In this document: positions 24,880 to 46,478 of the stretch, in pieces
Numbering within the stretch: position 1 is the stretch's first letter
Layout of the letters: every line of letters starts with the position of its first letter
Origin: Polyangiales bacterium
GTDB lineage: Bacteria > Myxococcota_A > Polyangia > Polyangiales > Ga0077539
Direction of reading: 5' to 3'
Assembly: GCA_044229975.1 (NCBI GenBank)
Contig: JBGARZ010000014.1
Span: forward strand, 158,865-222,864
DNA: 64,000 nt
The notes under the pieces: generated by a model
Databases searched by the model: none
What the model was told of the DNA's origin: nothing
The model's input: the letters and a program-made list of their open reading frames with translations, nothing else
Program-made: the position numbers and the translations under genes

Positions 24880-25427
24880 GGGCGCACCTCGACGAGCGAC
24901 TCGGCGAGCGCGCGGAGGTAGTCCTCCTGCACGCAGCGGGCGTCGAGGTCGGGGCGGTTGCTGCACTCGACGTCGAGCGACCAGGCGACGCCGCGCTCTT
25001 CCCAGGTGGCGACGCGGATGAGCTCGTTGCGGGACACGGTGGCCGGGAGCCCGCGCAGGGTGCCGGTGTGTCGGAGGGTCACGCCGGGCGGCGGCGGTTG
25101 GAGGTTGGCGTTGCCGTGGATGGCGATGGTGAGGTCGGCCAGCGCGATGGACGCGGCGACCCAGCGCGGACCCGACGTGACCACGGCGACGGCGACCATG
25201 CGCTCGTCGCGCGGCAGCAGCAGGGGAACGGTCGACGTGTCGAGCTCGCGACGTGACTCGGGGCGCAGGAGGTCACGCAGGCGCCGCGGGTCGACGGTGG
25301 TCGGCGTGGTGGGCGATGGGGCGACGACGGTGGGCGGCGTGGCGGGCGGCGACGACGTGGGCGCGTCGCGACGACACGCGAGCAGGAGCAACGGGAACAG
25401 CGAGAGGGACAGGCGCACGGGGCTCAC
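24876..25427 (-). CDS. Lipoprotein translationally coupled to the M23 peptidase
   Basis: Lipobox LLAC, Pro/Thr linker, VPLLLP...SLDVEC...ARC; GTGA overlaps at both ends. Confidence 0.8.
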   Translation of the reverse strand: MSPVRLSLSLFPLLLLACRRDAPTSSPPATPPTVVAPSPTTPTTVDPRRLRDLLRPESRRELDTSTVPLLLPRDERMVAVAVVTSGPRWVAASIALADLTIAIHGNANLQPPPPGVTLRHTGTLRGLPATVSRNELIRVATWEERGVAWSLDVECSNRPDLDARCVQEDYLRALAESLVEVRP

Positions 25428-27223: not shown

Positions 27224-27429
27224 CGGTCGAATACCCCGTGTGGCGTCAGTCCGCGCGCGAAGTGCCCCGCGGCGGCCGAACGGTCGAAGACGGCACCGCA
27301 AGTGTCAAGAGCGAACGTCGGCGGGTTGGCGCGCTACGGGGTGCAGTCGGTCGCGAAGACGACGCCCGCGGTGCCGCCCGCGCTACCGTTCGCGGGACAC
27401 TCGAAGCCGGCCGGGGCGACGGGGCAGTT

Positions 27430-27620
27430 CTGCGTGCCGTCGACACGCCCGGCAAGGTCGACGCGCTGCGCCTCGGCGCCGACGACTACATGACCAGGCC
27501 CTTCTGGCCGGAAGATCTCCTCGAACGCGTCCGCGCCCGCCTCCGCCGCCCGGCGCTGCGCCGCGGGGCCGCCATCGAGGTGGGCGCGCTGCGTGTCCAT
27601 CTGGAGGCCCGCGGGGTGAC
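27430..27620 (+). pseudogene. Internal fragment of an OmpR-family response regulator
   Basis: KVDALRLGADDYMTRPFWPEDLLERVRARLRR...IEVGALRVHLEAR; no N-terminal receiver acidic pocket and no winged helix. Confidence 0.7.
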
Positions 27621-27716
27621 CGGCTTGGCCCGCTGGTGGCGCGCGTGCGGCGGCTCACGGCGGCGCCGTCCCGTCGGTGATTGACGACAAGCGCGCGACC
27701 CTGTGCAATCCGGTCG

Positions 27717-28460
27717 GTGTCCCAAGGTGCGTCCGACGTGGTGGTGGAGGCGCGCGGGCTTACCAAGCGCTTCGGCGATCGGGTCGCCCTCGACGGCCTC
27801 GACCTCGCTCTCACGCGCGGCGAGATCTTCGGTCTGCTCGGACCCAACGGCGCGGGCAAGAGCACGACGCTCAACCTCTTCATGGGCTTCCTCCAGCCCA
27901 CGGCCGGGACGGCGCGCGTGGCGGGCATCGATTGCTCCCACGACCCCAGGTCCGTCATGCGCCTCGTGGGGCACCTCCCCGAGGAGCCCGCGCTCTTCGA
28001 GAACCTCACCGGCCGCGAGCTCATCTCCTTCGTTCTCACCATGCGTGGCGAGGACATCCCGTCGCGCTGGTCGGAGGTCGACACCTGCGCCGAGCGTCTG
28101 GGCTTCCATCAAGACCTCGATCAGCTCGTGGCGGGCTACTCCATGGGCATGCGCAAGAAGCTCGCGCTGGTCACGGCGCTCGCCCACGACCCGGCGGTGC
28201 TGCTGCTCGACGAGCCCACCAACGGCCTCGACCCGGTGGTCGCCCGCGAGGTGCGCGCCCTGCTCGAAGAGCGCGCCGCGCGAGGCGTGACGGTGGTGCT
28301 CTCGACGCACCTGCTCGACGTGGCGCAGCGGGTCTGCCATCGCCTCGGGGTCATCGTGAAGGGGCGCCTGCAAGCCGTCGGTGACGCCGCCGAGGTGTGC
28401 GCGCAGGCGGGCGGCGCGGAGACGCTGGAGGGGGCGTTCATGGCGTTGACGGCGCGATGA
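27717..28460 (+). CDS. ABC transporter ATP-binding protein
   Basis: GPNGAGKS, YSMGMRKK, LLLDEP, STH. Confidence 0.93.
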   Translation: MSQGASDVVVEARGLTKRFGDRVALDGLDLALTRGEIFGLLGPNGAGKSTTLNLFMGFLQPTAGTARVAGIDCSHDPRSVMRLVGHLPEEPALFENLTGRELISFVLTMRGEDIPSRWSEVDTCAERLGFHQDLDQLVAGYSMGMRKKLALVTALAHDPAVLLLDEPTNGLDPVVAREVRALLEERAARGVTVVLSTHLLDVAQRVCHRLGVIVKGRLQAVGDAAEVCAQAGGAETLEGAFMALTAR

Positions 28461-30655
28461 GCGGGGCGTCCCCGGCGGCGCAGGGGTGGGCGCTCGCGCG
28501 GATGTCGTGGCGCGGCGTCGTCAACTCGCTGCGGCACCGGCAGGGGGCCGGGGCGCTGGTCGTGTTTCCGCTGCTGCTGACGGTGCTGGTCTTCGAGCTC
28601 GCGCGCTTCGGGGGAAGGGGGGCCGACGGCGTCCGGCGCTTCCTCGCCGCCGCGCCCACCGACAAAGGAACCCACTTCGTCGCCCTCTGGCTCACCGTGA
28701 TGGCCCTCGCCATCGTGGCGCTCAAGTACGCGCGCGCCATCCCTGGTCGCGGCGCCCGACCGCTCTTCGACACGCTGCTCTTCCGCTCGCTGCCCGTCTC
28801 AGCCGTCACCCGCACGGCGTTTGAGCTGCTCGTCGGCAGCACCCACTCGGCGGGCTTCGTCGCGCTCGCCTTCGCGCCCGCGCTCTACGGCGTGGTCACC
28901 CAGCGACTCGCGGGCGCCACCGCCGTCGCGCTGACCGCCGCCCTCGCGGTGGGGGTCAACCTCGTGGCGACGCTCGTCGCGCACGCCCTCCACGCGCTCG
29001 TGTCTCGATTCCTCGGCGGTCGCGCGCTCGACCTCGTGCGGGTGGTGACGGCGTGCGCGGGCTTCCTCCTCGTGGGGCTCTTCTCGACGGTGGGGCCCAT
29101 CGGCGTGGGCTTCGCGCGCACGCTGCGCGTCGGTCGACCGGCGCCCGCGTGGAGCGCCGTGCTGCCGCTGCGCGGGCTCGTCCGCTGGCTGCGCTTCGAC
29201 GACCCCTCCGGGCTCGTCGCGCTCTCCGCTTGGACCCTCGCGCTGGTGGCGCTCTCGGTCGCCGCGCTCGTGTGGCGGGTGCGCGCTCCGACCGACCTCT
29301 CCCTCGACGGCCCGACCTCCCCGACCGGCGCGGGTCGCTGGGAGGCAGGTCTCTCGGGGTGGCGCGCGGAGTGGCGGATGCTCACCCGCCAGGCGCCCTA
29401 TCTCGTACTGGCGACGCCCGCGTTCCTGGTCTTCTTCTTCGCGGTGGTGAAGGGATCGCGCTCGGCGACCGGCGCCGACCTCCCCTTCGTCACGCTGATG
29501 GGGCTCATCGGGTGGGCGATCATCGTCCAGGGAACGGCCCTCACTGGCGCGGCGTCGCGTCGCTGGCGTCGAGTGCTCTGGATTCTGCCCGCCGTGGGTC
29601 GCGACCACCGTGACGCGATCCGTTCGCTCGCGCGCACGCACCTCACCATGACGGCGGGTCTGTCGCTCGGGGCCTTCCTGCCTTGGTGGTTTCTCCAGCG
29701 GCCGTTGTGGTGGTGGTACCCGCGACAGTTCGTCGGGATGCTGCTGGCCATCGCGGTCGGGCAGTGGGCGCAGTCGGCGGCGCTCTTCCTGCTCATCGAC
29801 CCGTCGCCCGATCGGCTCACGGGGCTGTCGGTCGGCGGAGTCTTCGGCGTGCTGGTGACGGCGCTCCCGACGGCGGCGCTGCTGGCGCTGCTCTCGGCGA
29901 TGCCCTTCGCGCGGTGGCTATCTCTGCTCGCACTGCTCGCGCTGCTCGCGTGGGCGATGGAGTCGTCGGCCGTGGCGCGGCTGCGCTGGATCCGCGAGCC
30001 GACAGGCGACCCCGAGGCGCCGCTGCGGACCTGGCCCGCGCTGCGAACCTTCGGCATCGCGGGGCTCGCGCAGGTGGTGATCGCGGAGACCGGCGACGCG
30101 CTGGGCTTCGGCGCGACGACGACGCTCGTGCTGGCGCTGGTGGTGTTTGCGGCGGTGCTGCTGCCGCTCGGATGGAGGGGCGCGCGCTCACACGCCGTCG
30201 CCGACGCAGTGCGCTGGTCGCTCGGGAGGAGCATCGCAACGGGCGTCGGCGTCGGCGTGATGAACTTCGGTCTGGCCCTCGGTCTCGCGCGACTTGCGCA
30301 CAAGGCGGGCGCGGGCGACTCGCCCTTGGCGGCGGCCTTCACGCAGACGCGCGGGTTCACGCTGGTGGCGGTGGCGCTGACGGCGACGACGGTGATCCCG
30401 CTGGCGGAGGAGCTGTTCTTCCGCGGGTGGTTGTTGCCCGCGCTGCGACGAGAGCTGGGGAGCGCGCGGTCGGCGGTGGCGGTGTCGGCGGCGGTGTTCG
30501 CGCTGGTTCACGCGGGCGCGGCGTGGGCGCCGGCGCTGTGGGCGGGCCTGCTCGCGGGCGCGCTGGTGTTGAAGAGCGGGCGGCTGGCGACCTCGGTGGC
30601 GATGCACGTCACCAACAACGCCATGGTCGTACTCGCGGTGCTCATCGGGCGGTGA
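28457..30655 (+). CDS. ABC exporter permease fused to a CPBP (CAAX/Abi) intramembrane metalloprotease
   Basis: ATGA-coupled; many TM helices; C-terminal EELFFRG, FALVH, HVTNN. Confidence 0.85.
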   Translation: MSGASPAAQGWALARMSWRGVVNSLRHRQGAGALVVFPLLLTVLVFELARFGGRGADGVRRFLAAAPTDKGTHFVALWLTVMALAIVALKYARAIPGRGARPLFDTLLFRSLPVSAVTRTAFELLVGSTHSAGFVALAFAPALYGVVTQRLAGATAVALTAALAVGVNLVATLVAHALHALVSRFLGGRALDLVRVVTACAGFLLVGLFSTVGPIGVGFARTLRVGRPAPAWSAVLPLRGLVRWLRFDDPSGLVALSAWTLALVALSVAALVWRVRAPTDLSLDGPTSPTGAGRWEAGLSGWRAEWRMLTRQAPYLVLATPAFLVFFFAVVKGSRSATGADLPFVTLMGLIGWAIIVQGTALTGAASRRWRRVLWILPAVGRDHRDAIRSLARTHLTMTAGLSLGAFLPWWFLQRPLWWWYPRQFVGMLLAIAVGQWAQSAALFLLIDPSPDRLTGLSVGGVFGVLVTALPTAALLALLSAMPFARWLSLLALLALLAWAMESSAVARLRWIREPTGDPEAPLRTWPALRTFGIAGLAQVVIAETGDALGFGATTTLVLALVVFAAVLLPLGWRGARSHAVADAVRWSLGRSIATGVGVGVMNFGLALGLARLAHKAGAGDSPLAAAFTQTRGFTLVAVALTATTVIPLAEELFFRGWLLPALRRELGSARSAVAVSAAVFALVHAGAAWAPALWAGLLAGALVLKSGRLATSVAMHVTNNAMVVLAVLIGR

Positions 30656-30672
30656 TACGAGTCCCATCCGCC

Positions 30673-31614
30673 ATGGGACAGAAGCTCGACCTCGCGCTCG
30701 GTGTCCTCAACGGCGCCGTCGGTGACTACCTCGTTCGCACGGGCAACGGCCTCGCGCTCGACATGGCCTTCCACCGTGACGGAGCGCCCATTGCGATCAC
30801 CCGCGCCGCCCTCTCCGCGGCGTACCCCGCGGCCACGGCGCGCGTCGTGGTGCTCGTCCACGGCCTCATGAACACCGAGTCCATCTTCGCGATGCCCGAC
30901 GGTCGCGACTACGGATCGCTCCTCCGCGACGACCTCGGCTTCACCCCGCTGTACCTCCGTTACAACTCGGGTCGGCCCATCGCCGACAACGGCGCCGCGC
31001 TCTCCGCGCTGCTCACCGCCCTCGTCGCGGAGTACCCGGTTCCGCTCACCGAGGTCGTGCTGCTCGGGTACAGCATGGGCGGCCTCGTCGTGCGCGCCGC
31101 CTCCCACGCTGCGTCCGTGGGCGATGCCCCGTGGCTCCCGCTTGTGCGCAACGCCCTCTACGTCGGGACGCCTCACCGCGGTGCCCCGCTCGAACGCGCA
31201 GGCCGCGTGGTGAGCGCGGTGCTCCAGGCGATTCCCGACCCGTACACGCGCCTCATCGCCGACATCGCCGACCTCCGCAGCGACGGCCTGAAGGACCTCG
31301 GCGACGCCGACCTCCGCCACGAAGACCGCGCGCTCCGCACGGTGCGCTTCACGCTGCGGGACAAGCGGCACCCGGTTCCGTTGTTGCCGTCGATCGCGCA
31401 TCACCTCGTGGTCGGGTCGCTTACCCACGAGCCGTGGGTCGCGGCGCTCTTTGGCGACGGGGTGGTCCCGGTGTCGAGCGCCAACGGCGGTGGCGCGCTG
31501 GGCGCGGGGCTCGACCCGTCGCGGGTGCGGGTGTTTCCGGGCCTCGGGCACGGCGCCATCCCGCGCTCGCTGGACGTCTACGCGCAGCTCCGCGCATGGT
31601 GCGAGGCGCCATGA
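30673..31614 (+). CDS. Alpha/beta hydrolase (PGAP1-like lipase/esterase)
   Basis: VLVHGL, RYNSG, GYSMGG nucleophile elbow, GTPHRGAPLE, GDGVVP, His near the C-terminus. Confidence 0.88.
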   Translation: MGQKLDLALGVLNGAVGDYLVRTGNGLALDMAFHRDGAPIAITRAALSAAYPAATARVVVLVHGLMNTESIFAMPDGRDYGSLLRDDLGFTPLYLRYNSGRPIADNGAALSALLTALVAEYPVPLTEVVLLGYSMGGLVVRAASHAASVGDAPWLPLVRNALYVGTPHRGAPLERAGRVVSAVLQAIPDPYTRLIADIADLRSDGLKDLGDADLRHEDRALRTVRFTLRDKRHPVPLLPSIAHHLVVGSLTHEPWVAALFGDGVVPVSSANGGGALGAGLDPSRVRVFPGLGHGAIPRSLDVYAQLRAWCEAP

Positions 31615-31907
31615 CCGACACCCGGACGCAGCGATGGTTGGGCCTCCAACGACTCGTGCAGGACGCCGTCGAGCACGGGGCCACGGCCGTCGAGCGTGTG
31701 CACCGCGAGACCGCCGATCGCACCTTCGCGGTGCTGGAGGCGATTCCCCCCGTGGCCGAGCCCGCGAAGGTCGTGCACAGCGTCTTCGGCCTGGTGCTGA
31801 CCGGGAGCTACGGCAGCGTGCGGTTGGTCAATCGCGCCGTGGGCGCGGTGCTGCATGCGGTGATCGAAGAGACGACCCGCGGGGTGGGTGACGCAGGCGA
31901 GCAATGA
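31611..31907 (+). CDS. Small helical protein coupled to the lipase
   Basis: ATGA overlap; MTDTRTQRWLGLQRLVQDAVEHGATAVERVH... Confidence 0.75.
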   Translation: MTDTRTQRWLGLQRLVQDAVEHGATAVERVHRETADRTFAVLEAIPPVAEPAKVVHSVFGLVLTGSYGSVRLVNRAVGAVLHAVIEETTRGVGDAGEQ

Positions 31908-31957
31908 TGGTAACCGCCGGTGGGTCGACGACCGCCGCCGACGGAGTCCATTCAGCG

Positions 31958-34129
31958 ATGCGAACGCCCCTGTTTCGAGTGTTGTCGTTGCTCTCCCTGG
32001 CGGGCGTCTCGGCCTGCGGTGTTCCGTCGGAGGGAGATGACATCACGGGCGTGGACGACGCGGGTGTCGCGCGCCGCGATGGCTCCGTGGTGCGCGACGC
32101 TGGCGTGTCGGGTGCTCCCGCCGCGGTGCTCGAGCTCTACCTCCTCGACCTCTGGTCGCAGCCGCTCCCGATGGACGACGTCACGCTCACCGTGACGCTC
32201 GACGGCCAGCCCGTGACCAGCGTGGAAGGCGCTCAGCCCTACGTGCGCCGCATCGACCTGCGCACCCACGGCCGCCTCTCGGTGACGCTCTCGGCGCCGC
32301 AGCACCGCACCCTCCGCGCCGACCTCGACTTCGACGGAACCCGCCGCGCCGACGGCCTCACCGCGCGCCTCACGAGCGATGCCACGGCGCAGGGACTCTC
32401 GCTCACCCACGGCACGCGCACCGTCTCGGGGCAGACCATTCCCCTGCACACCGTTGCGCTCGGGTTGCGGCACCTGTGGTTCTCGGCGCAGGGTCGCCCC
32501 GCGCGTCGCGGCAACCGGGTCGATCTCCTCATGGACGGTGAGGAGGCATGGCGCACCGTGCACGCCGACCTCCAGACGGCGCGGACCACGGTCAACGTCT
32601 CGACCTGGTGGTGGGAGTCGGACTTCGAGCTCATCCGCGACGCGGCGACGCACCCGACGTCCACCGAAGATCAGCGCCGACGCAACACGGTGCTCTCGGT
32701 GCTGGAGCGCTCGCCCGCGCGCAAGCGGGTCATCGTGGGGCAGTTCCTGTCGATGGACGGCGTGGCCTCGACGCTCTCGTCGGACGCGGCGCTGCGGGCG
32801 CACGGGACGCTCGCCAACGACAACTTCGAGTACATGGGGCAGGCCAACGAGACGCGCGGGATGTTCGACTTCGCCGTCGCGCCGTTCTCCTTCCGCGACC
32901 GGGTGCGCGAGACGTTTGCGTCGCTGTCGTCGGCGACCTTCGCGTCCGAGTCGTTGGTGCGGAGCGAGGTGCCGGGGCACGCCGTCGACCTCACGCATTG
33001 GCCCGTGGTCATGGCCGACGTGCAGGCGGCCTCGTATCACCAGAAGTTCATGACCATCGATCAGCGCCTGGCGTTCATCGGCGGGATGAACCTCCGGCGC
33101 GTGGACTGGGACACGTCGCGGCACCGGGTGTTCGAGCCGCGGCGGATGTTGTTCGGGTCGAGCGCGAGCGCGCGGCAGGAGGTGGTGAGCCGCGATCACC
33201 TGCCCGACAACGGACCGCGCAAGGACTACATGGTTCGCATCGAGGGGCCGAGCGCCATCGATGCCGAGTCGGTGTTCCACGAGCGGTGGCAGTTTCTGCG
33301 GAGCACCAACGCGCGCTTCAGCCCTGACAGCTCGGCGTTCACGGTGGGCGATGCGCCCGCGGCGGTGCAGGGCGGGGTGCAGCTTCAGGTGACCGCGACG
33401 CTGCCGCAGCCGTTCAACGAGAACGCCATCGCGGAGACATGGTTCAACGCGGTCGCCCAGGCGCGGCAGTACATCTACATCGAGGACCAGTACTTCCGCA
33501 TGCCGATGATGACCGACGCCATCGTGCGGCGGATGCAGGAGGTCCCGACGCTGCAACTGGTGGTCGTCACCAAGCCGATCAGCGAGTGGTCCGACCCCGG
33601 CTGCGCGTGGACGCGGCGGGTGCACGAAGACCTGCTCGCGCGCTTCCCCAGTCGCTACTCGATGCTGCAACTGCGGGCCTTCGACACGCAGGTGACCTGG
33701 GGCGTCGACGAGACCGAGGCGCGCTTCGTCGACATGGACACGCACTCCAAGATGTTCATCGTGGACGACGTGTTCATGAGCGTCGGGAGCGCCAACAAGA
33801 ACAACCGCGGCATCGTCTACGAGGGCGAGCTCAACGTGGCGGTGTATGATCCGACGTGGGTGCGCGCGGCGCGTCGGCGCATCCTCGCCAACATCCTGCC
33901 AGCGGGCGTGACGGTCTCCGACGATGCGGTGCAGTGGCACCGGCAGCTCCTCGACGCGGCCATCTACAACGACAACGTCCGAGAGCGGTGGACCGACGAG
34001 GGCGACGACCTCGACCTCGACGGCGACGCGCTGCCCGCCGAGTACACCCCGCGGGGCTTCGTGTATCAGCTCCCGATGCGCGGCGTGATGCGCTGCCTCA
34101 TCGAGGACATCGGCCCCGACATGGTGTGA
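31958..34129 (+). CDS. Phospholipase D superfamily lipoprotein
   Basis: Lipobox VSAC; two HKD motifs HQKFMTID...GGMN and HSKMFIVD...GSAN. Confidence 0.9.
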   Translation: MRTPLFRVLSLLSLAGVSACGVPSEGDDITGVDDAGVARRDGSVVRDAGVSGAPAAVLELYLLDLWSQPLPMDDVTLTVTLDGQPVTSVEGAQPYVRRIDLRTHGRLSVTLSAPQHRTLRADLDFDGTRRADGLTARLTSDATAQGLSLTHGTRTVSGQTIPLHTVALGLRHLWFSAQGRPARRGNRVDLLMDGEEAWRTVHADLQTARTTVNVSTWWWESDFELIRDAATHPTSTEDQRRRNTVLSVLERSPARKRVIVGQFLSMDGVASTLSSDAALRAHGTLANDNFEYMGQANETRGMFDFAVAPFSFRDRVRETFASLSSATFASESLVRSEVPGHAVDLTHWPVVMADVQAASYHQKFMTIDQRLAFIGGMNLRRVDWDTSRHRVFEPRRMLFGSSASARQEVVSRDHLPDNGPRKDYMVRIEGPSAIDAESVFHERWQFLRSTNARFSPDSSAFTVGDAPAAVQGGVQLQVTATLPQPFNENAIAETWFNAVAQARQYIYIEDQYFRMPMMTDAIVRRMQEVPTLQLVVVTKPISEWSDPGCAWTRRVHEDLLARFPSRYSMLQLRAFDTQVTWGVDETEARFVDMDTHSKMFIVDDVFMSVGSANKNNRGIVYEGELNVAVYDPTWVRAARRRILANILPAGVTVSDDAVQWHRQLLDAAIYNDNVRERWTDEGDDLDLDGDALPAEYTPRGFVYQLPMRGVMRCLIEDIGPDMV

Positions 34130-37345: not shown

Positions 37346-37708
37346 ATGAGACAAACAACCTGGTTGGTGGCGCTGACGGCGGTGGTGTTGGCCTTCGGGT
37401 GCGGCGACGTCTTCGACGACATCCTTCCCTCCAAGGGGAGCTGTACGATCCCGTCGCCGCGCGCGTGCACCGACTACACGGGCAGCGCGTGGAGCACCCC
37501 GAGCAGCGGCAGCCGCGCGTGTGCCGCGGTCGGCAACGGGGCGACCTACTCGTCGGCGGCGTGCTCGACGTCGGGCCGCGTCGGATCGTGCGTGGTCAAC
37601 AGCGGGCAGGCGTCGGAGGTCGTCATGCGCTTCTACCCCCCGTCGACGACGGCCACGGCGCAGGCCATCTGCGGCATGCAGTCGGGCTCGCGCTTCGTCC
37701 CCAACTGA
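37346..37708 (+). CDS. Small Cys-rich lipoprotein
   Basis: MRQTTWLVALTAVVLAFGC; six further Cys. Confidence 0.8.
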   Translation: MRQTTWLVALTAVVLAFGCGDVFDDILPSKGSCTIPSPRACTDYTGSAWSTPSSGSRACAAVGNGATYSSAACSTSGRVGSCVVNSGQASEVVMRFYPPSTTATAQAICGMQSGSRFVPN

Positions 37709-37724
37709 CACCTCCCCCACCACC

Positions 37725-38933
37725 ATGAACGACCGTCTCATCCTCGCGCTGCGCCCGTGGACCTACTCGGACGTGGGCGTGATGTTCGCCGTGCTGTTGG
37801 GGCTGATGTTTCTCTCGGTGGTGCTCCAGGGCCGCGGTCGCGCGCGCACCGCACACCGGGTGATGGCCGCCGCCGGTGCCCTCGTCACGGCACAGCTCGG
37901 ATGGCACCTCGTCTCGCACTACGCGCGCTGCGACGCCTGCCCCGTTGCCTTCGACGTGTGCCCCAACCCGTCGAGCTGGGCCTTCCTCTACGACTACCTC
38001 GCCTGCCAGGTGGTGCTGTCGCTCTTCGCGTTCCAGGAGTCGCGCCGCTACGGGCTCGCGCACCCCGTTCGTTGGGCGCTCGCGGTGTTCGCGGCGCCGC
38101 TCGTCGGCACGCCGCTCTTCTTCGCGCGCCTCCATGACCTCGAAGAGGGCGGCGCTACGCCGACGGCGAGCGTTCCGTCGCTGCGCTGGGCCTTCGCTGC
38201 GCTGGTGGTGTTGAGCGCGCCCTTCGTGATGCCCGCGCTGCCCTTCGACCACTTCGGCGCGCTCGGCGGGGAGTTCTATTGGGACGGAACCTCCAACGCC
38301 CTCAACACCTACGTCGCGTACTCGGTGCTGCTGCTGTTCGGGCAGGTGTTCGTCTTCACGCTCCCGCGCACCAGGGGCGTCGCGTGGCAGGTGGCGTCGC
38401 TCTTCCTCGCCTTCAACTGCCTCGCCGCGTACATCGCGCTCTTCTTCGTCTTCTACGACCAGCGCTTCACCGCCGACACCTCGACGCCGCGCCACCGCTT
38501 CGCCCCGCGCGGTGAGATCGGCATCATCGGCGCCATCGTCCTCGGCAACCTCGCCGCGATGATCTTCGGCGTGACCCTTCGCTACACGCACTTCGTCGTG
38601 AAGAGCCCGGAGCAGGTGTGCCACGAGGGCCTCGTCACCACCCGCCGTGCGCTCGCGGCCTGCGTCACCGACCTCGAAGCCGCCCTGCCCGCGAGGCAGC
38701 AGGCCGCCGTCGCGTCGGGCGCCAACTCCTACGCGCGGGCGCTGCCCGGCGAGACCCAGGCGTGCCTGACCCTCGCTCGTGGCGCGATCGCGGGCGACGA
38801 GCGCGAGCGCCGGGAGCTCACCCGGCGTCTCGCGATCCATCACGGCAGCGACCTCCCGTCGTGTCAGGAGGCCGCGTCGGCCAACTACGCCGTGCTCAAC
38901 GAGTGTCCGATCATTCCCCCGCTCAGCCGCTGA
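37725..38933 (+). CDS. Multi-pass membrane protein with DUF2834-like segments and a Cys-containing C-terminal soluble domain
   Basis: FLYDY...ESRRYG...PLFFARL resembles the DUF2834 pattern; many TM helices; 3' end overlaps the megasynthase by 11 bp. Confidence 0.65.
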   Translation: MNDRLILALRPWTYSDVGVMFAVLLGLMFLSVVLQGRGRARTAHRVMAAAGALVTAQLGWHLVSHYARCDACPVAFDVCPNPSSWAFLYDYLACQVVLSLFAFQESRRYGLAHPVRWALAVFAAPLVGTPLFFARLHDLEEGGATPTASVPSLRWAFAALVVLSAPFVMPALPFDHFGALGGEFYWDGTSNALNTYVAYSVLLLFGQVFVFTLPRTRGVAWQVASLFLAFNCLAAYIALFFVFYDQRFTADTSTPRHRFAPRGEIGIIGAIVLGNLAAMIFGVTLRYTHFVVKSPEQVCHEGLVTTRRALAACVTDLEAALPARQQAAVASGANSYARALPGETQACLTLARGAIAGDERERRELTRRLAIHHGSDLPSCQEAASANYAVLNECPIIPPLSR

Positions 38934-41900
38934 CCACCTCCGGGCCGCGCTCGCCATAGAGCTTGCGTGCGAAGGCGGCGACCCACCGATCGACGGGCGA
39001 GTCGCCGAGCACGAGGCGACCCGCGCGTGCACCGTCGAGGATGCGCCGCGTGTCGGGCGACGGGTCGGGGAGTGCTTCGAGCACGGCGCAGATGATGTTC
39101 CAGAGGGAGTTGGCGCCGGTGCGGGCCGACCACGCGGCGACGGTCTCGCCGAAGGCCGGGTCGGGTACGCCGGGCTCTTCGACGGCGTTGCTGGGGCCGA
39201 GGCCGTTGATGCCCGCGAGCACCCGCTCGCTGCGCTCGACGAAGCCGAGGTCGGTGAGCTCTTCGGGGAGGATGGGGCGACCGATCCAGTAGACCTGCTT
39301 CGTGTAGCCGACGGGCACATCGATCTTCTCGTCGAGGGGATCGGCAGGCAGGCCGCCGGTGAAGCGCACCGGGATGATGGGCGCGCCCGTGGCGAGGGCC
39401 ATCTCCACGAACATCGGGTTGAGCACCTGCACGGGCTCGCGGCAGTTGGTGGAGCGCGTCCCCTGGACGTGGACGAGCACGTTGCGGGTGTTGGTGCTGA
39501 GCGCGGTGGCGAGCTCGTTGATGCGGTCGCCGATCTCCTCGGGCTTGGAGCGGTCGATGAACACATACGTCTTCGGATGAACCACGCCCGGGTACGCGAA
39601 CATGTGCTCCATGAACCAGCCCATGTCCCCGGCCAGGCCCTCGATCTTGGCGAGGCCGACGAGGTGCTTGCCGCTCAAGCCCGCCATGATGGTGGAGAGC
39701 ATCGCGGGCTCGGCCGACACCTGATGGTTGGCGAGGTAGAGGCAGCCGCGGTCGCGCACGCGCTCGAAGGCCGCGCGATCTTCGAAGGCGACGTGGTCGA
39801 CGAAGCGGCGGATGAAGCCGAAGACGACGTCCTCGAAGGGCCAGCGCGAGACGCCGAAGTGGTGGCGCCAGTAGGCGAGGGGGACGTCCATGTCATGGCC
39901 CGCGATGCGCTGGATGTCCGAGGCCTTCGGCGCGACCGCGACCACTGGCGCGGCGGCGGGTTCGGCGCGCGGGGCGGCGCGTTTTGCGTCGACGCGGCTG
40001 AGGGCATCGGCGACGCGGGCGAGGGTGCGCTGCTCGTAGAGGAGTGATGTCGCGACGGCCCAGCCGAGCCAGTCGGAGAGCTGCGTGACGAGCGTGGTGA
40101 TGGCCAGCGAGTCGAGCCCGAGCTGCTCGATGGGGGCGTCGAGGTCGACCGTGCTGCGGCTCGTCCTGGCCACCTTCGCGACGGCCCCGGTGAGCCAGCC
40201 GCGCAGCTCGTCGACGGAGCGCGCCGGGCGCGTGGAGACGCCCGCCGCGGCGTCGCGTGAGTCGTCGTCACCGAAGTGCCGCGCGACGAGCGCCTCGGCG
40301 TACGCCACGTTGCACTCGATGAGCTCGAAGTTGAACAAGCTCCCGCAATAGAAGGTGGAGTTGCTGCCCTGGAGCGCTTCGAGGCGCGCGTGGAAGCCCT
40401 CCGCGGCGGCCTCTGGGTCGACGTGGGGGAAGTACCTCCAGCGCTTCTGGAGCAGCACCTCGCCCATGGTTCCCCCGATGGCGGTGACGTCTTCGCGGAG
40501 GCGGGCTTCGATGTCCCGGCCGTCGAGCGAGTCGTTGCCGTAGGAGTAGAAGAGCACCACGTCGGAGCCTGGGTGGCGGTGGTGCATCGCGACGCAGTGA
40601 CCCACGCGCGAAGGGTCGTCGGTGTTCTGCCGGAGGATGTAGAAGCCCTCTTCGGGGAGCGACTGCGCGCGGGCGACGGTCGTGTAGTAGTCGAGGTGCT
40701 GCACCTGCCCGAAGAGCTCGCGCTCCTCCAGCGTCGCATCGAGGAACGGCAGCGCGTCGTCCACCGACAGCGCGAGCACCAGGCGATCGAACTCCAGGCG
40801 CTCCTTGCCGACGGACACGCGGACCTTGCCGTCACGTCGCTCCACCGCGCGCACCTTCACGCCGCGGCGAACGTCGGGGAGCTTGGAGGCGACGCGGTTC
40901 CAGAGCGTCTGCATGCCGCCCGCGACGGTCCAGTACTGGAGCAGATCGGGGTGACCATCCTTGGCGAGCAGACCGGCCGTCTCGGCCGCCTTCAGGAAGT
41001 ACACCGCGGGGATGTCCCCGCCCTTGAGATAGCCGTATCCCGTCGAGGTAAAGCTCGCGCCGATGGCATCACCGAGGGCGCCGAGCCCGTGGCCGTCGAG
41101 CCACTCCAGGGCAGGCTGCGCGGCCGCCGTCGCAACGCTCGCGAGGCCCGGTCGGTCGAACCCGGCGAGCTTGTTCTCCCGCAGCGCGCGGTACTTCAAG
41201 AACGCCTCGCGCAGCGCCGGGCCCTCGTCCCACGGGATCACCCGCCGCGCCTCCATGTCGTAGTTGAACGTCGGCGTCGCCTTCTCCATGTGCAGCCCCA
41301 TCGAGGCCACCAGGCGCGCGACGGCCTTGTACTGCGGCGTGCAGAGGTGCCCGCCCAGGTCGTACGCATGGTCGTCGACCGTGATGGACGCGCACTTGCC
41401 CGCGACCTCGGGTGCCGCCTCGAGCACGGTCACCTGATGGCCCTGCTGGTGGAGGTTCCAGGCGGCGGTGAGCCCGGAGGCACCCGCGCCGATGACGCAC
41501 ACGCGGAGGGACTTCTTCTTCGTCGCGACCGGCGGCGCGGCGCCGGGTGCGTCGGTCATCAACGCGGCGAGCGACGGAGGCAGCGTCTGCCCGAGCCGGG
41601 CGCACGCAGAGACTTCGTAGACCACCTCACGCAGTGTCTCCAGCGACGCGAACTCGCTGGCCGATCGCGCGGGCGGTGGGGCGAGCTCGATGGGCGCGTT
41701 GAGCGAATTGAAGCGCAGTGACTCCACGGCGTCGTCGTCGGCGACGCGGTCGAGGTGCAGGCGCATCGCGACGCGCCACGGGTGATCGGCCTCGCTCCAC
41801 GGGCGGGTGCAGTCGAGGGCGGCCTCGTCGACGTCGTGGAGCTGGACCTCCAGCACATAGTCGATGCCTCCGTCGGCGAGTCGGGCGCGCAGCTCGTCGT

Positions 41901-44301
41901 GGAGGAAGGTGGACGGGCGCGTGTCGTCGTCACGCCGCGGAATGGAGTCGGGCGGCAGCAGCGCTTCGCCGTGGACGAAGGCGCCGTCGGCGTCGAGGTC
42001 GGGGCGCCGTAGACGGAAGCGCGCGTAGCAGCGGGAGCCGTCACGCGCGGAGAGCAGCGAGGCGGTCTTCGAGTGGTAGTAGACCTCGGTGTAGGAGAGC
42101 GGCGCGCGGAACATCTCCCACGCGGCGGTCGCGACGTGGGGGTTGGCCTTGGCGATCGCGTCGCGCTCGGTGGGGCTGCCGCCCATCCAACGCAGGAAGC
42201 CTTGCGCGGTGGGCGCGAGGAAGCACCGCCCGGTGGTGAGCAGGAGGTCGAGCAGCGGCGTGTCGAGCGATGTGCTGTCGGGGTCGAGCACGCGCACCGT
42301 GGCGCCGCGGTTGTCCCAGGCGGCGTCGTCGTCCTGCACGCCGTTGGCGTGACGCACCAGCACCGGGTAGCGGCGACCGCTCGCGAAGAGCCCGATGGGC
42401 GGAACCGCTCCGTCGGCCGTCGCCTCGACGAAGCCCAGGAGCGTCGTGGCGCGCTTGTGAAACATCCTCCCGCCGCGCTCACGAGACGCGCGCGCGAACC
42501 AGCGACCGACGTTCGCGGCAATGGTGCGGAGGCCATCGTCCATGCCCTCGACGATCTCGGCGAGGGTCGGCGCATTGCCCGCGCGGTCGACGTGCAGCGC
42601 GGCGAAGGCACCCCGCTCGAAGGCTTCGCGGCACGCGCGACGACGAAGCTTGCCGCTCGACGTCTTCAGCACCGCTCCGGGTCGCGCGAGGATCACCACG
42701 GCGCACGCCTGTCGGTGGTCGCGGATGATGCGAGCGCGCACGGCCGCCGCCACGGCCTCGGCCTGCGCGGGGTCGACGGAGTGGTCGCGCAGCTCGACGA
42801 TCACCGCGAGCTCATCGCCTGCCGCCGCGGGGCCGCGCAGGCCGAAGGCCGCGACGCCGCCGGGGCGCACGAGGTCGTGGCAGCCACGCACGCTGTCTTC
42901 AATGTCCTGCGGGTGGAGGTTGCGGCCGCGGACGATGATGGTGTCCTTCAGGCGACCGACCACGAAGAGCTCGCCCTCGTGGAGGAAGCCGAGGTCACCC
43001 GTTCGGAGGTAGGAGAGCGGGTCGTCGGGGAGGGTGGCTTCGAAGGTGTGGCGCGTCTCCTCGGGCAGTCCGTCGTAGCCAGCGGCCTTGCTCGGGGAGC
43101 TCACCCACAGCTCACCCACGCGACCCATCGGGAGCGCTTCACCGGACTCGGGGTCGACCACGCGCACGGTCACTCCCTCCGAGGGGCGACCGCAGCCGAC
43201 GCACTCCACCGCGGGCGCGTCGCCGACGACGGGCGTGACGCGGCGGTGGTGTTCGAGCTCGGCGCGGTCGAGGCGGGCGGTGGCGCGGCCGCGCACGGAG
43301 ACGCCGACGGTGTGCTCGGCGAGCCCATACGCAGGGCAGAACGCCTTCGGATCAAACCCGCTCGCCGCGAACGCATCGCAGAAGGCGCGCACCGTCTCCG
43401 GGCGCACGGGCTCGGCGGCGCTCATGGCGACGCGCAGCGAGGAGAGGTCGAGCGCGCTGCGCTGCTCGGCGGTGCTCTTGCGGACGGCGAGGTCGTAGCC
43501 GAAGTTGGGGCCCGCGATGTGCGTGGCGCGAACACGCGACGCGAGCTCCATCCAGACGTGCGGCCGCTGGACGAAGGAGAGCGGCGACATCATCCACAGC
43601 GAGCCGTTGCCGTGCAGCGCCGCGAGGATGCCGCTGACGAGTCCGAAGTCGTGGTAGTGCGGCACCCACATCGCCATGCGCGCGTCGGGCCCGAGTCCGA
43701 GGTCGTGCGCGTTGACCGTGAGCTGGTGGGCGAGGTTGCCGTAGGTGATGAGCACGCCGCGCGGCGCCGAAGTCGACCCCGACGTGTACTGCACGAACGC
43801 CACGTCCTCGGTCGACGGCGACGGGCGCGCGGGAGCGGGCGAGCGGTCATCGGCCGCGGTGGTGTCGAGCCACGGGAGCGCGGGCAGCGAGACCTCCGGG
43901 TTGTTGGCGACGTACTCGCGGAGGCCGGCGTAGACGCCGTCGGTGAGCAGCGCCTTCGCGCGCGCCGAGCGGACGATGTTGGCGATGGCCGGGAGGTCCT
44001 GCGCGAGGTTGTACGGGTTGGGCGACGCGACGGGCACGGGCACCACGCGGGCCACGAGGCACCCGATAAACGCGCGCACGAAGTCCATCGACGGCGCGTA
44101 GATGAGCACCGCGCGATCACCCGCTTCGAGGCCCGCGCGGCAGAGCTGTCCGGCGACCGACTCGGCCTCGGTGAGGGTGTCACCCCAGGTCATGCGCGCG
44201 GCGTCGGAGCCCGCGTCGTCGACGAAGGTGTACAGCAGCTCGGTGGGGGTCTCGCGCCCCAGCCGACGCAGGCGCTCGATCACGGTCTCCGACGTATTCA
44301 T
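38923..44301 (-). CDS. Multidomain lipid enzyme: FAAL - catalase-related (AOS-like) heme domain - PAI-like FAD oxidoreductase/isomerase - ACP - acyltransferase
   Basis: FAAL: QYTSGST, WVPHYHDFGL, YGLAE, RTGDLG, KTSSGK. Catalase-like: RMFH615, VRHAN..DDD, REVVY895. FAD: VIGAGASG938, GKC, WRYFPHV. ACP: GLDS1398L. Acyltransferase: NH1526QVSAE, VQGTR, PIIPV. Confidence 0.92.
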   Translation of the reverse strand: MNTSETVIERLRRLGRETPTELLYTFVDDAGSDAARMTWGDTLTEAESVAGQLCRAGLEAGDRAVLIYAPSMDFVRAFIGCLVARVVPVPVASPNPYNLAQDLPAIANIVRSARAKALLTDGVYAGLREYVANNPEVSLPALPWLDTTAADDRSPAPARPSPSTEDVAFVQYTSGSTSAPRGVLITYGNLAHQLTVNAHDLGLGPDARMAMWVPHYHDFGLVSGILAALHGNGSLWMMSPLSFVQRPHVWMELASRVRATHIAGPNFGYDLAVRKSTAEQRSALDLSSLRVAMSAAEPVRPETVRAFCDAFAASGFDPKAFCPAYGLAEHTVGVSVRGRATARLDRAELEHHRRVTPVVGDAPAVECVGCGRPSEGVTVRVVDPESGEALPMGRVGELWVSSPSKAAGYDGLPEETRHTFEATLPDDPLSYLRTGDLGFLHEGELFVVGRLKDTIIVRGRNLHPQDIEDSVRGCHDLVRPGGVAAFGLRGPAAAGDELAVIVELRDHSVDPAQAEAVAAAVRARIIRDHRQACAVVILARPGAVLKTSSGKLRRRACREAFERGAFAALHVDRAGNAPTLAEIVEGMDDGLRTIAANVGRWFARASRERGGRMFHKRATTLLGFVEATADGAVPPIGLFASGRRYPVLVRHANGVQDDDAAWDNRGATVRVLDPDSTSLDTPLLDLLLTTGRCFLAPTAQGFLRWMGGSPTERDAIAKANPHVATAAWEMFRAPLSYTEVYYHSKTASLLSARDGSRCYARFRLRRPDLDADGAFVHGEALLPPDSIPRRDDDTRPSTFLHDELRARLADGGIDYVLEVQLHDVDEAALDCTRPWSEADHPWRVAMRLHLDRVADDDAVESLRFNSLNAPIELAPPPARSASEFASLETLREVVYEVSACARLGQTLPPSLAALMTDAPGAAPPVATKKKSLRVCVIGAGASGLTAAWNLHQQGHQVTVLEAAPEVAGKCASITVDDHAYDLGGHLCTPQYKAVARLVASMGLHMEKATPTFNYDMEARRVIPWDEGPALREAFLKYRALRENKLAGFDRPGLASVATAAAQPALEWLDGHGLGALGDAIGASFTSTGYGYLKGGDIPAVYFLKAAETAGLLAKDGHPDLLQYWTVAGGMQTLWNRVASKLPDVRRGVKVRAVERRDGKVRVSVGKERLEFDRLVLALSVDDALPFLDATLEERELFGQVQHLDYYTTVARAQSLPEEGFYILRQNTDDPSRVGHCVAMHHRHPGSDVVLFYSYGNDSLDGRDIEARLREDVTAIGGTMGEVLLQKRWRYFPHVDPEAAAEGFHARLEALQGSNSTFYCGSLFNFELIECNVAYAEALVARHFGDDDSRDAAAGVSTRPARSVDELRGWLTGAVAKVARTSRSTVDLDAPIEQLGLDSLAITTLVTQLSDWLGWAVATSLLYEQRTLARVADALSRVDAKRAAPRAEPAAAPVVAVAPKASDIQRIAGHDMDVPLAYWRHHFGVSRWPFEDVVFGFIRRFVDHVAFEDRAAFERVRDRGCLYLANHQVSAEPAMLSTIMAGLSGKHLVGLAKIEGLAGDMGWFMEHMFAYPGVVHPKTYVFIDRSKPEEIGDRINELATALSTNTRNVLVHVQGTRSTNCREPVQVLNPMFVEMALATGAPIIPVRFTGGLPADPLDEKIDVPVGYTKQVYWIGRPILPEELTDLGFVERSERVLAGINGLGPSNAVEEPGVPDPAFGETVAAWSARTGANSLWNIICAVLEALPDPSPDTRRILDGARAGRLVLGDSPVDRWVAAFARKLYGERGPEVVSG

Positions 44302-44390
44302 CCCGAGTTCTCCTCACTTACGCGGCCCAAGACGCCGCAGGTACAAGGTCGGATTGCGGGTGGTCAAGGGCGCGGAGATACTCGCAGCCC

Positions 44391-45083
44391 GTGTCTGGAA
44401 TTGCGTTCTTCGACGTCGACCGAACCCTCCTCTCGGTCAACTCCGCGACCCTCTGGATCAGGCGTGAGCTCAAGCTCGGCCATGTGTCGCGTCGAGATGC
44501 GATGCGCGGCGCGCTCTGGCTCGGTCTGTACGCGATGGGCTTCGCTCCGATGGAGGCCGCCCTCATCGACGCGGTGGGCACGTTGCGTGGAAAGCGCGAG
44601 AGCGACATCCGCGATCGGACGCTCGCGTTCTGGCGCGACGAGGTGCGCCATCTCATTCGTCCGGGCGCTCGCGGCGCGCTGGCGATGCACCGTGCGCGCG
44701 GCGACGCGATCTACCTCCTCACCTCGTCATCGACCTATCTCTCGGGCGAGCTCGCGGCCGAGCTCGGCTGTGACGGCTACCTCTGCAACCGCATGGAGGT
44801 CGCCGACGGACTCTTCACCGGCGGCATCGTGCGCCCGGTCTGCTTCGGCGCGGGCAAGGCCACGCTCGCCGCGACCCTCGCCGCCGAGCGCGGCGTTGCC
44901 ATGTCCGACTGCGCCTACTACGGCGACAGCTACAGCGACCTGCCCATCCTGCTCGCGGTCGGAACGCCCGTCGTGGTCAACCCCGACCTCCGCCTGCGCC
45001 TCGCCGCGCGTCGCCGCGCATGGCCCATCGAAGACTGGAGCCGCGCGCCCGCGCTGCTGCCCGCTCCCGCGCGCGACACCTGA
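44391..45083 (+). CDS. HAD-IB family hydrolase (SerB-like/lipid phosphatase-like)
   Basis: FFDVDRTL, LTSS, GK, YGDSYSDLP, VNPD. Confidence 0.9.
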   Translation: MSGIAFFDVDRTLLSVNSATLWIRRELKLGHVSRRDAMRGALWLGLYAMGFAPMEAALIDAVGTLRGKRESDIRDRTLAFWRDEVRHLIRPGARGALAMHRARGDAIYLLTSSSTYLSGELAAELGCDGYLCNRMEVADGLFTGGIVRPVCFGAGKATLAATLAAERGVAMSDCAYYGDSYSDLPILLAVGTPVVVNPDLRLRLAARRRAWPIEDWSRAPALLPAPARDT

Positions 45084-45090
45084 GCGAGGT

Positions 45091-45351
45091 CTAGCTCGTC
45101 TTGATGGGTGCGGCCCCGCCGACGACCTGCGCTTCGCGCTCTGCCGCCGGGTCGGCGGACGCCGGCGCGCTGCGCTCGACCGAGACGCCCAGCGCCGCCA
45201 GGTCGCCTGCGCCGAGGCCCAGCAACTTCGCCACGGCGTCCCGATGGTCGCGCTCGTGCTCGTGGCCCAGCGCGCCGACCTCAGACTCGTAGTCGACGGT
45301 GATCCTCGGCCCGTCGGCGGTCTCCACCAGCCGAATCTTCATGGTGGCCAC
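45091..45351 (-). CDS. Small protein, FtsH-ternary-system X3-analog-like
   Basis: MKIRL...ITVDYESE..ALGHEHERDHRDAVAKLLG; family assignment from recall. Confidence 0.7.
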   Translation of the reverse strand: MATMKIRLVETADGPRITVDYESEVGALGHEHERDHRDAVAKLLGLGAGDLAALGVSVERSAPASADPAAEREAQVVGGAAPIKTS

Positions 45352-45354
45352 CGC

Positions 45355-45885
45355 TCAGACCTCCACCGTGATGGTCGTGACCCGCTGCCCGTCGGCGTCG
45401 ACGCTCTCCACGGGATCTCCTGCCCGACCGAGCTGCCCGGCCTTCCGGACGAGCGCCTCCAGCAGCGCCGCGCGCACCGCACCGCCCACCTCGTCGCGCA
45501 CCGCCTCCTCCGCTCGCATCAGCGCGCGGTCGGCCTTCGCCTTCGCCTCGCGCTCGAAGTCCGGGCGACGACGTTCGGCGTCCTCGCGCGCCGCCGCGTC
45601 GCCGCGCCCGTCATTGTCCGCGGGGTCGTAGCTGCTCCCGATCACGTCCGCGGTGGCCTGCGCGTTGAGCTCCAACGCGGGGTTCTCCAGGTCGATGCTG
45701 AGCTCCGCGGCGTCGACCGTCTTGCGCGCGGTCTTGCCGTCGTCGTCGATCGCCCAGCCCGCCTTCGCGAGCTCGGCGCCCAGCAGCGCGGGCATCTCCG
45801 GAACGATGGGCGGACACACCACGACCCGCCGGTCGCGGCTCTCTCCCACCACCGTTCCGAGCTTCACCCTGTACGTCTTGCTCAT
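45355..45885 (-). CDS. Hypothetical protein, FtsH-ternary-system X5-like
   Basis: ATGA-coupled to the radical SAM gene; MSKTYRV...EALVRKAGQLG...TITVEV; family assignment from recall. Confidence 0.7.
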   Translation of the reverse strand: MSKTYRVKLGTVVGESRDRRVVVCPPIVPEMPALLGAELAKAGWAIDDDGKTARKTVDAAELSIDLENPALELNAQATADVIGSSYDPADNDGRGDAAAREDAERRRPDFEREAKAKADRALMRAEEAVRDEVGGAVRAALLEALVRKAGQLGRAGDPVESVDADGQRVTTITVEV

Positions 45886-46478
45886 CGTGTCCCTCTCACG
45901 ATCGATCGTCCCGTCGCCGCGCCCGTCACCGGCCACCCGTTGACCACCACCTCGCCGTCGCGGAGGTGGATCTCTAGCGTGTTGCGCTGCGCGAAGCACG
46001 GGTCGTCCGCCCGGTAGCGATCGGTGAGGAAGACCATCCGCTGGTTGGTCGAACCCACCCAGCGCCGCGCGCTCGTCCGCAGCGACGCCTCGTAACGACC
46101 GTCGACCAGCAGGTCCGTCGACGCGAGCAGCGCGCGCACCCCGTCGTCCTCCATCGCCCCGAGCTCCTCCAGCGTGTAGCCCGTAAACACCATCACCGAG
46201 AGCCCTCCCGCGCGCACCAGCGACGCGAAGCGCGCGAGCTCCGTCGCCTGCGCCATGGGCTCGCCACCCAGCAGGCTCACGCCCTCCACGCCCGCTCGTA
46301 GCGCGCGCTCGGCCAGCGCCTCGGCCGTCATCGTGTCGCGCTCCACGAACGCGAGCTGCTCGGGGTTGCAGCACTCCCGGCAGCGGAGGGGACAGCCCTG
46401 CACCCACACCGCGAAGCGCACGCCCGGCCCCTCGGCTTCGGTGCGATCGACCACGTTGGCGACGTTGAGCGAGGGCAC
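45882..46478 (-). CDS. Radical SAM protein, NrdG-like 4Fe-4S single-cluster family
   Basis: EGPGVRFAVWVQGCPLRCRECCNPE (CxxxCxxC), GGEP, FTGY, DLLVDGRY, GSTNQR. Confidence 0.9.
   Translation of the reverse strand: MPSLNVANVVDRTEAEGPGVRFAVWVQGCPLRCRECCNPEQLAFVERDTMTAEALAERALRAGVEGVSLLGGEPMAQATELARFASLVRAGGLSVMVFTGYTLEELGAMEDDGVRALLASTDLLVDGRYEASLRTSARRWVGSTNQRMVFLTDRYRADDPCFAQRNTLEIHLRDGEVVVNGWPVTGAATGRSIVRGTR

Follow-up and report, generated by a model that had tools for sequence, protein, structure and literature searches.

By the accepted scheme, a lipoxygenase (LOX) or a heme dioxygenase acting on a free or lipid-bound fatty acid takes the first step in making oxylipins. Here we describe a gene that may depart from this scheme, found in a 64,000-nucleotide stretch of DNA, hereafter the window, from a Polyangiales bacterium (GCA_044229975.1, contig JBGARZ010000014.1, positions 158,865 to 222,864). 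It encodes a protein (P0001) with a fatty acyl-AMP ligase (FAAL) domain, a catalase-related heme domain, a flavin domain, an acyl carrier protein (ACP) and an acyltransferase. If the reading given below is true, a single chain free of a ketosynthase (KS) applies both a flavin and a heme to an acyl group bound to a carrier, and oxylipins would have a new route without a LOX.

The separate parts have described counterparts. The fatty-acid isomerase PAI of Propionibacterium acnes removes a bis-allylic hydride and turns a 9,12-diene into a 10,12-diene. The Myxococcus xanthus ether-lipid enzyme ElbD is said to be a KS-free ligase-carrier-acyltransferase that modifies a fatty acid and passes it to a glycerolipid, tailoring by reduction, with no heme or PAI-like domain. 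In the coral catalase-related allene oxide synthase (cAOS), which is fused to a LOX, the Thr before the distal His is reportedly called a 'hallmark' in the title of one paper. This residue, T66, is named as catalytic in passages of PMC5617202. The maracen cluster proposed for Sorangium in part of PMC12800573 combines a polyunsaturated fatty acid (PUFA) synthase, a LOX, a P450 and two flavin amine-oxidase-family genes with an oxygenated PUFA product. Its genes are separate, and part 1 of 4 of its Table S7 has no FAAL, ACP-fused or catalase gene; as no such fusion is found in that part, the cluster was set aside as a source of the product. Closest in layout are plant proteins in which FAALs lie between HemY/amino-oxidase and catalase domains, with function given as unknown in passages of Patil et al. 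2021 (PMC8460268). A search of titles and abstract openings, in which few subscription papers were covered, found no published description of the five-domain architecture, in line with a preliminary description of the locus that knew of no characterised enzyme of this kind. The matched passages of two FAAL surveys (PMC12820801, PMC11837247) do not contain it either, and their supplements, or the figure supplement of Patil et al., may list it.

The single open reading frame (ORF) called in the preliminary description is intact (Table 1), and all of its motifs are where they had been placed: RMFH at 612 (His615) and REVVY at 891 (Arg891, Tyr895) in the heme domain; GAGASG at 938, WRYFPHV at 1288 and LQGSNSTFYCG at 1310 in the flavin domain; GLDS at 1395 (Ser1398) in the ACP; and NHQVSAE at 1525 and QGTR at 1613 in the acyltransferase. 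Pfam matches over cut-off cover AMP-binding (32-409), Amino_oxidase (942-1255), PP-binding (1369-1434) and Acyltransferase (1514-1647), while the heme domain is invisible to Pfam and was found by phmmer against the Protein Data Bank (PDB). All five domain calls thus hold by Pfam, PDB or Pfa3 comparison. The Pfam scan (18 families listed) found no KS, condensation or thioesterase family in P0001, as first claimed, nor does the protein have the make-up of a polyketide or nonribosomal peptide synthase. A chimeric assembly, raised earlier as a possible refutation, was ruled out because GC content at third codon positions is even along the gene (0.88-0.94) and the same layout recurs in independent homologues, namely 11 of the 30 proteins found with the heme-flavin region (self included, one N-terminally cut). 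Identity to homologues also declines evenly across all five domains. Four sequencing runs gave short contigs only, none covering the whole stretch. The existence of the gene, the homology-based assignment of its five folds and their conservation are established, as are the family and the linkage to a membrane gene.

The heme domain matches coral cAOS over aa 612-896 (phmmer against PDB, 1u5u, E=1.1e-25). It shares with coral cAOS-LOX (1u5u, 3dy5) the catalase fold, a distal His (His615) and a proximal Arg/Tyr pair (Arg891, Tyr895), retaining cAOS His67, the Arg349-equivalent and Tyr353, and in both proteins it lies directly N-terminal to an oxidising partner. Unlike the coral enzyme, P0001 has Phe614-His615 where cAOS has Thr66-His67, Thr689 (invariant in 22 of 22) at the cAOS Asn137 site, and a flavoprotein as partner, and its substrate would be carrier-bound. 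The cAOS-type domain of the preliminary description therefore stands as regards homology and the His/Arg/Tyr set and is not supported as regards cAOS-type chemistry. Judged by its residues, the domain probably binds heme, yet lacks two cAOS features, and with Phe-His instead of Thr-His it is no standard allene oxide synthase. In a midpoint-rooted tree of 149 heme domains (156 given, 7 short or doubled removed), the domains fused to a PAI-like partner, those of plants among them, group together in one branch (support 0.89) that excludes most LOX-linked domains. The basal part of this branch holds Thr-His members and two catalase-LOX fusions, which indicates that flavin domain and LOX share the same slot behind the heme domain. 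The distal pair in 46 PAI-fused domains is Phe-His in 30, Ala-His in 5, Thr-His in 4 and Leu-His in 2, with the proximal Arg/Tyr retained in 45; LOX-fused heme domains have Thr- or Ser-His in 19 of 23.

The flavin domain is homologous to PAI over its full length (2b9w, E=4.8e-41 over aa 930-1343) and carries the FAD motif; the next PDB match in the phmmer search, at 4e-9, shows how far PAI stands above other amine-oxidase-fold proteins. Four PAI residues that we take to form the substrate site, Arg88, Phe168, Phe193 and Gly406, are replaced by Pro1010, Thr1087, Lys1114 and Glu1326, with gaps around the Phe193 alignment, which does not support the earlier view of the domain as simply a PAI; it is also fused to an ACP and a heme domain. 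Arg88 and Phe193 presumably gate the free carboxylate, in which case their loss would fit an esterified substrate. Catalase-coupled flavin domains of bacteria and plants form one clade (0.93), and those of the acyltransferase forms are monophyletic (1.00).

At the N-terminus, the best NCBIfam and PDB matches are FAALs at 250-350 bits, against at most 137 bits for acyl-CoA ligase models; this domain is nearer FAALs than acyl-CoA ligases or adenylation domains, and candidate motifs for the FAAL-specific insertion and helix were located. The protein has a cognate ACP whose D1397-S1398 pair is invariant (22/22). The last 320 residues share 37% identity (203 bits) with the exit domain of the host's own Pfa3, which, together with a PF01553 match over cut-off, bears out the suggested resemblance to the acylglycerol-phosphate acyltransferase (AGPAT) domain of Pfa3 (PMC6731297, in part). 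It is not a canonical PlsC/AGPAT domain, scoring 35.8 bits against TIGR00530 (cut-off 103) and having HxxxxE rather than HxxxxD in 9 of the 10 rows shown, as has the host Pfa3. Unlike the Pfa3 enzyme, P0001 is without KS, acyltransferase (AT) and dehydratase (DH) domains of chain building, so that its chain would be imported and not built.

The heme-flavin region search returned 30 proteins including P0001 itself; besides the 11 with FAAL, catalase-like, PAI-like and acyltransferase domains there was 1 further fragment of that type, and the rest mostly end in a thioesterase plus an extra domain. A heme-domain profile matched 869 representatives at E<=0.001. Among the best 150 of these 869, a PAI-like domain is present in 43 and a LOX in 24, and 11 are partial FAAL or plant-type chains, the remainder being stand-alone domains or fragments (60) and other fusions (12). 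The catalase-like, PAI-like and ACP core occurs in myxobacteria, cyanobacteria, actinobacteria and land plants, with named members in Archangium, Polyangiaceae, Coleofasciculus/Trichocoleus, Lentzea, Selaginella, Eucalyptus and Flectonema. The closest named relative found is from a Myxococcaceae metagenome-assembled genome (L001; 74% in the heme domain). Exits include thioesterase, reductase, condensation and Pls-like domains and, by their arrangement in these sequences, are exchangeable around the core. Members are thinly scattered: 4 of 31 genomes in the host's taxonomic family have one, as do 4 of 401 in a phylum sample; a genome-collection scan gave 1 locus and a plasmid scan 1 partial flavin match. 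Class-wide matches in G244, G134 and G409 turned out to be LOX-linked and were rejected as members. Condensation and reductase domains are seen in P0149 (Flectonema) and P0124, one of them from a protist transcriptome.

By its domains, P0001 belongs to the same family as the plant HemY-FAAL-ACP-catalase proteins of which parts of PMC8460268 speak. The plant proteins (Selaginella P0049, the Eucalyptus P0104 cluster) have the same four core domains and subfamilies and are nested in the same heme and flavin branches. Selaginella P0049 matches P0001 with 181 bits and 35% identity in the heme domain, 214 bits and 32% in the flavin domain, and 35% in the FAAL, and is nearer to it than the solved enzymes are (94 bits for heme, 144 bits for flavin). 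The plant proteins differ in domain order, in a Lys at the distal Asn site, and in having Pls/PosA-like membrane repeats (TIGR02353, below cut-off) instead of the acyltransferase. Such C-terminal repeats, below cut-off, are seen in the plant-type P0049, P0108, P0120 and P0164 and suggest a polymerising exit. A bacterial protein and a land-plant family that has been without an assigned function since 2021 thus have a catalytic core in common. As the bacterial protein shares this core and is soluble by hydropathy, the question of the plant function becomes testable in E. coli.

A sibling family has a P450-like domain in place of the catalase-like one; the acid-alcohol pair of its I-helix is missing in 11 of 11, and the domain is therefore probably a peroxide-using heme. 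The host genome encodes such a second megaenzyme of 1817 aa, P450-like/PAI-like/FAAL/ACP/thioesterase (L002:9576-15029; G000:C39:71575-77028, plus strand), between an Mpo1-like gene and a P450; it has 10 homologues, and its P450-like domain is without the acid-alcohol pair.

Accessory domains were counted in 67 proteins with both catalase-like and PAI-like domains. A class II terpene-cyclase fold occurs in 20 (model pLDDT 92; Rv3377c E=2.6e-13, TM 0.71) as the C-terminal ~520 aa of P0018 and 19 others, and 18 of the 20 have the [D/E]xDx[T/S] motif. By sequence this domain has no Pfam or PDB match and an hhalign probability of 3%, the fold being resolved by the model only. A SnoaL-like insert (0.84, a lead only) is found in 6 of the 67 and an acyltransferase in 12, and no protein has two of cyclase fold, SnoaL-like insert and acyltransferase. 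An epoxide-hydrolase-like gene lies immediately downstream in G761 and G056 (5ng7, E=3.9e-39). The family thus includes fatty-acid lines to which a class II terpene-cyclase fold is fused. Because cyclase folds and epoxide hydrolases act on cations or epoxides, these accessories favour such an intermediate for the family, as features of other members and not of P0001.

We propose that the flavin and heme domains oxygenate a tethered unsaturated acyl chain before its transfer to a lysophospholipid, and give this reading a probability of about 0.45. The FAAL would form the acyl-AMP and load Ser1398, as its family does. The flavin domain would take a bis-allylic hydride as PAI does and likely hand the electrons on to O2, so that either a conjugated chain plus H2O2 or a hydroperoxide results. 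The catalase-like domain would likely spend that peroxide to convert the tethered chain to an epoxide or an epoxy-allylic cation, and the Pfa3-type domain would likely acylate 1-acylglycerol-3-phosphate (lysophosphatidic acid); for Pfa3 this acylation is itself said to occur only 'presumably' in passages of PMC6731297. The convergent membrane protein might then work on the membrane-borne product, much as a cyclase or hydrolase would in other members. This keeps the earlier logic of activation, tethering, modification and transfer to a glycerolipid, as a reading of the domains. It is supported by the heme and flavin domains travelling together (the 43 PAI-like against 24 LOX fusions in the best 150 of 869), and substrate could be supplied since the genome has a pfa1-3 PUFA synthase and a desaturase joins the related locus in G012. 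P0001 would then represent a type of KS-free FAAL-ACP tailoring enzyme, categorically new if the LOX-free oxygenation holds.

More tentatively, and at odds that we place clearly below even, the proposal extends to the whole family: a LOX-free, carrier-tethered oxylipin line in which a PAI-like flavoenzyme replaces the LOX as peroxide source for a catalase- or P450-derived heme, and in which plug-in exits (glycerolipid acyltransferase, thioesterase plus terpene-type cyclase, reductase, Pls-like polymerase) would direct the epoxide or cation into membrane lipids, cyclic fatty acids or polyesters, with land plants sharing the machine.

Several points weigh against oxygenation of a tethered chain by P0001. 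The only solved full-length relative of its flavin domain, PAI, is a redox-neutral isomerase, and Glu1326 is no marker of carrier-linked chemistry, since all 79 ungapped rows (81 rows in total) have an acidic residue there, stand-alone relatives included. Of 46 PAI-fused heme domains, 5 have lost the distal His. Pocket residues are also imperfect predictors of chemistry, because catalase activity is described for a coral Thr-His AOS and Asn137 is not essential, according to passages of PMC5617202. P0001 carries none of the three accessories (cyclase fold, SnoaL-like insert, epoxide-hydrolase-like neighbour); the epoxide-hydrolase neighbours in G761 and G056 belong to the His-less branch, not to that of P0001, and the cyclase fold could serve a prenyl substrate instead. 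At the G486 locus, no lipid gene is among the 3 neighbours scanned. The membrane partner has no Foldseek, PDB-sequence, NCBIfam or Atlas match and no internal repeat, and 5 of the 11 other acyltransferase-type proteins, three of them on contigs under 6 kb, have no partner homologue on a contig of matching length.

On a different view, which we consider unlikely, the enzyme is a conjugated-lipid synthase: the flavin domain turns the tethered chain into a conjugated polyene, by isomerisation or oxidative desaturation, the heme only scavenges H2O2 and no oxygen is gained. PAI being the closest solved relative suits this, as does the hydrophobic residue before the distal His, nearer to catalases than to cAOS (30 Phe-His and 4 Thr-His of 46), and a class II cyclase is able to start from an alkene. 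Descent of the heme domain from the cAOS/LOX-linked group and not from classical catalases speaks against this view, as do the replaced distal Asn and occasionally lost His, the atypical P450, which would be an odd scavenger, and the epoxide-hydrolase neighbours. A further version, built on the preliminary description, has a PAI-type isomerase and a cAOS- or hydroperoxide lyase-type enzyme act on a hydroperoxide made by a LOX elsewhere and loaded by the FAAL. Here cAOS as best PDB match, the three kept residues and the Thr-His of basal members are set against Phe at the Thr66 site. A LOX does exist on contig C19 of the host genome, but it has its own catalase-like neighbour, and no LOX is fused or adjacent at this locus, among the window genes scanned (27 ORFs and 7 more), or beside the G012, G761 and G486 genes. 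A hydroperoxide-transforming step thus finds no source of fatty-acid hydroperoxide encoded nearby, and we regard this version as distinctly improbable.

A special case of the proposed oxygenation, and a very unlikely one, is a furan or cyclic-ether fatty-acid synthase, in which a 9,12-diene would become a 10,12-diene, be oxygenated by the heme, close to a 10,13-epoxy furan and go onto a lipid. The known bacterial furan route uses a methyltransferase, none of which is linked in the loci read, and there is no direct evidence. The diene positions do fit the 10(13)-epoxyoctadecadienoic acid named in part of PMC11719350, and plants have the same core. Given least probability of all is a repair or salvage enzyme that collects oxidised fatty acids and, once their peroxide is reduced or rearranged, puts the chain back into membrane lipid. 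The host makes PUFA and the FAAL-ACP-acyltransferase set resembles acyl-recycling enzymes, but the patchy spread and varied exits (thioesterase, reductase, condensation, Pls-like) look biosynthetic.

Table 1. Features of the five-domain gene and its flanking genes (window coordinates).
Feature	Position	Strand	Basis or remark
Five-domain enzyme gene (P0001)	38923..44301	minus	1792 aa, ATG start, no internal stop
FAAL domain, aa 4-570	42592..44292	minus	Pfam AMP-binding E=3.6e-57
Catalase-related heme domain, aa 595-915	41557..42519	minus	1u5u match, tree and residue table
PAI-like FAD domain, aa 930-1345, Glu1326 at PAI Gly406 site	40267..41514	minus	2b9w match and conservation
ACP, aa 1366-1436, Ser1398	39994..40206	minus	Pfam PP-binding 46.4 bits
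Putative Pfa3-type glycerolipid acyltransferase, aa 1469-1782, HxxxxE motif	38956..39897	minus	Pfam PF01553 30.7 bits (cut-off 23)
Convergent partner gene (P0033), 402-aa all-helical membrane protein	37725..38933	plus	overlaps enzyme 3' end by 11 bp
Divergent HAD-IB phosphatase gene	44391..45083	plus	89 bp upstream; TIGR01490 over cut-off

The convergent membrane gene, which the preliminary description does not mention, was found in 2 of 61 genomes (G000, the host, and G012), both times beside the five-domain gene, and in G012 a fatty-acid desaturase gene precedes it. It has 19 homologues; 16 of the 20 members match DUF2834, though weakly (best E=2.5e-7), and the model of its product reached pLDDT 80. 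For 6 of the 11 other acyltransferase-type proteins a partner homologue is either on the same contig (G012, read directly) or on a contig of identical length and so probably the same one (5). Enzyme and partner diverge in step: their pairwise identities correlate with rho 0.98 over 21 non-independent comparisons, which indicates co-inheritance, not function. The HAD-IB gene, whose product is possibly a lipid-phosphate phosphatase by its family, occupies the same place in L001, whereas G012 lacks it there. Neither a sigma-70 promoter nor a terminator pattern was seen at the locus, and long overlapping ORFs at 42073-46017 (plus) and 37623-39566 (minus) were rejected, having no family match.

Further along the window, 5-13 kb downstream of the enzyme gene, positions 25427-34129 hold an acyl-CoA ligase, an ABC transporter, a CAAX-protease-like protein, a PGAP1-like hydrolase and a phospholipase D. 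On the other side, at 45094-46478 (minus), lies a gene with an FtsH ternary system fvmX5 domain, with a radical-SAM-like neighbour (motif by eye) and adjoining recJ.

The host genome is 10 Mb in size with 71% GC and has a myxobacterial-type pfa cluster and two phosphopantetheinyl transferases. On contig C10 (L003:1581-18440 and L005:718-5553), pfa1-pfa2-pfa3 is followed by a 1611-aa one-chain biotin carboxylase. On C19 (L006:7453-11245, minus), a membrane-anchored catalase-like gene precedes the LOX and a kinase-AAA-GAF-cyclase gene adjoins; this catalase-like domain keeps Thr-His and Asn, has Glu/Ile in place of the proximal Arg/Tyr, and the same gene pair is present in G006, G019 and G030. 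In another genome (L032:10836-14991, G004:C62), two stand-alone PAI-like genes flank an RPE65/carotenoid-oxygenase-family gene, next to an aldehyde dehydrogenase.

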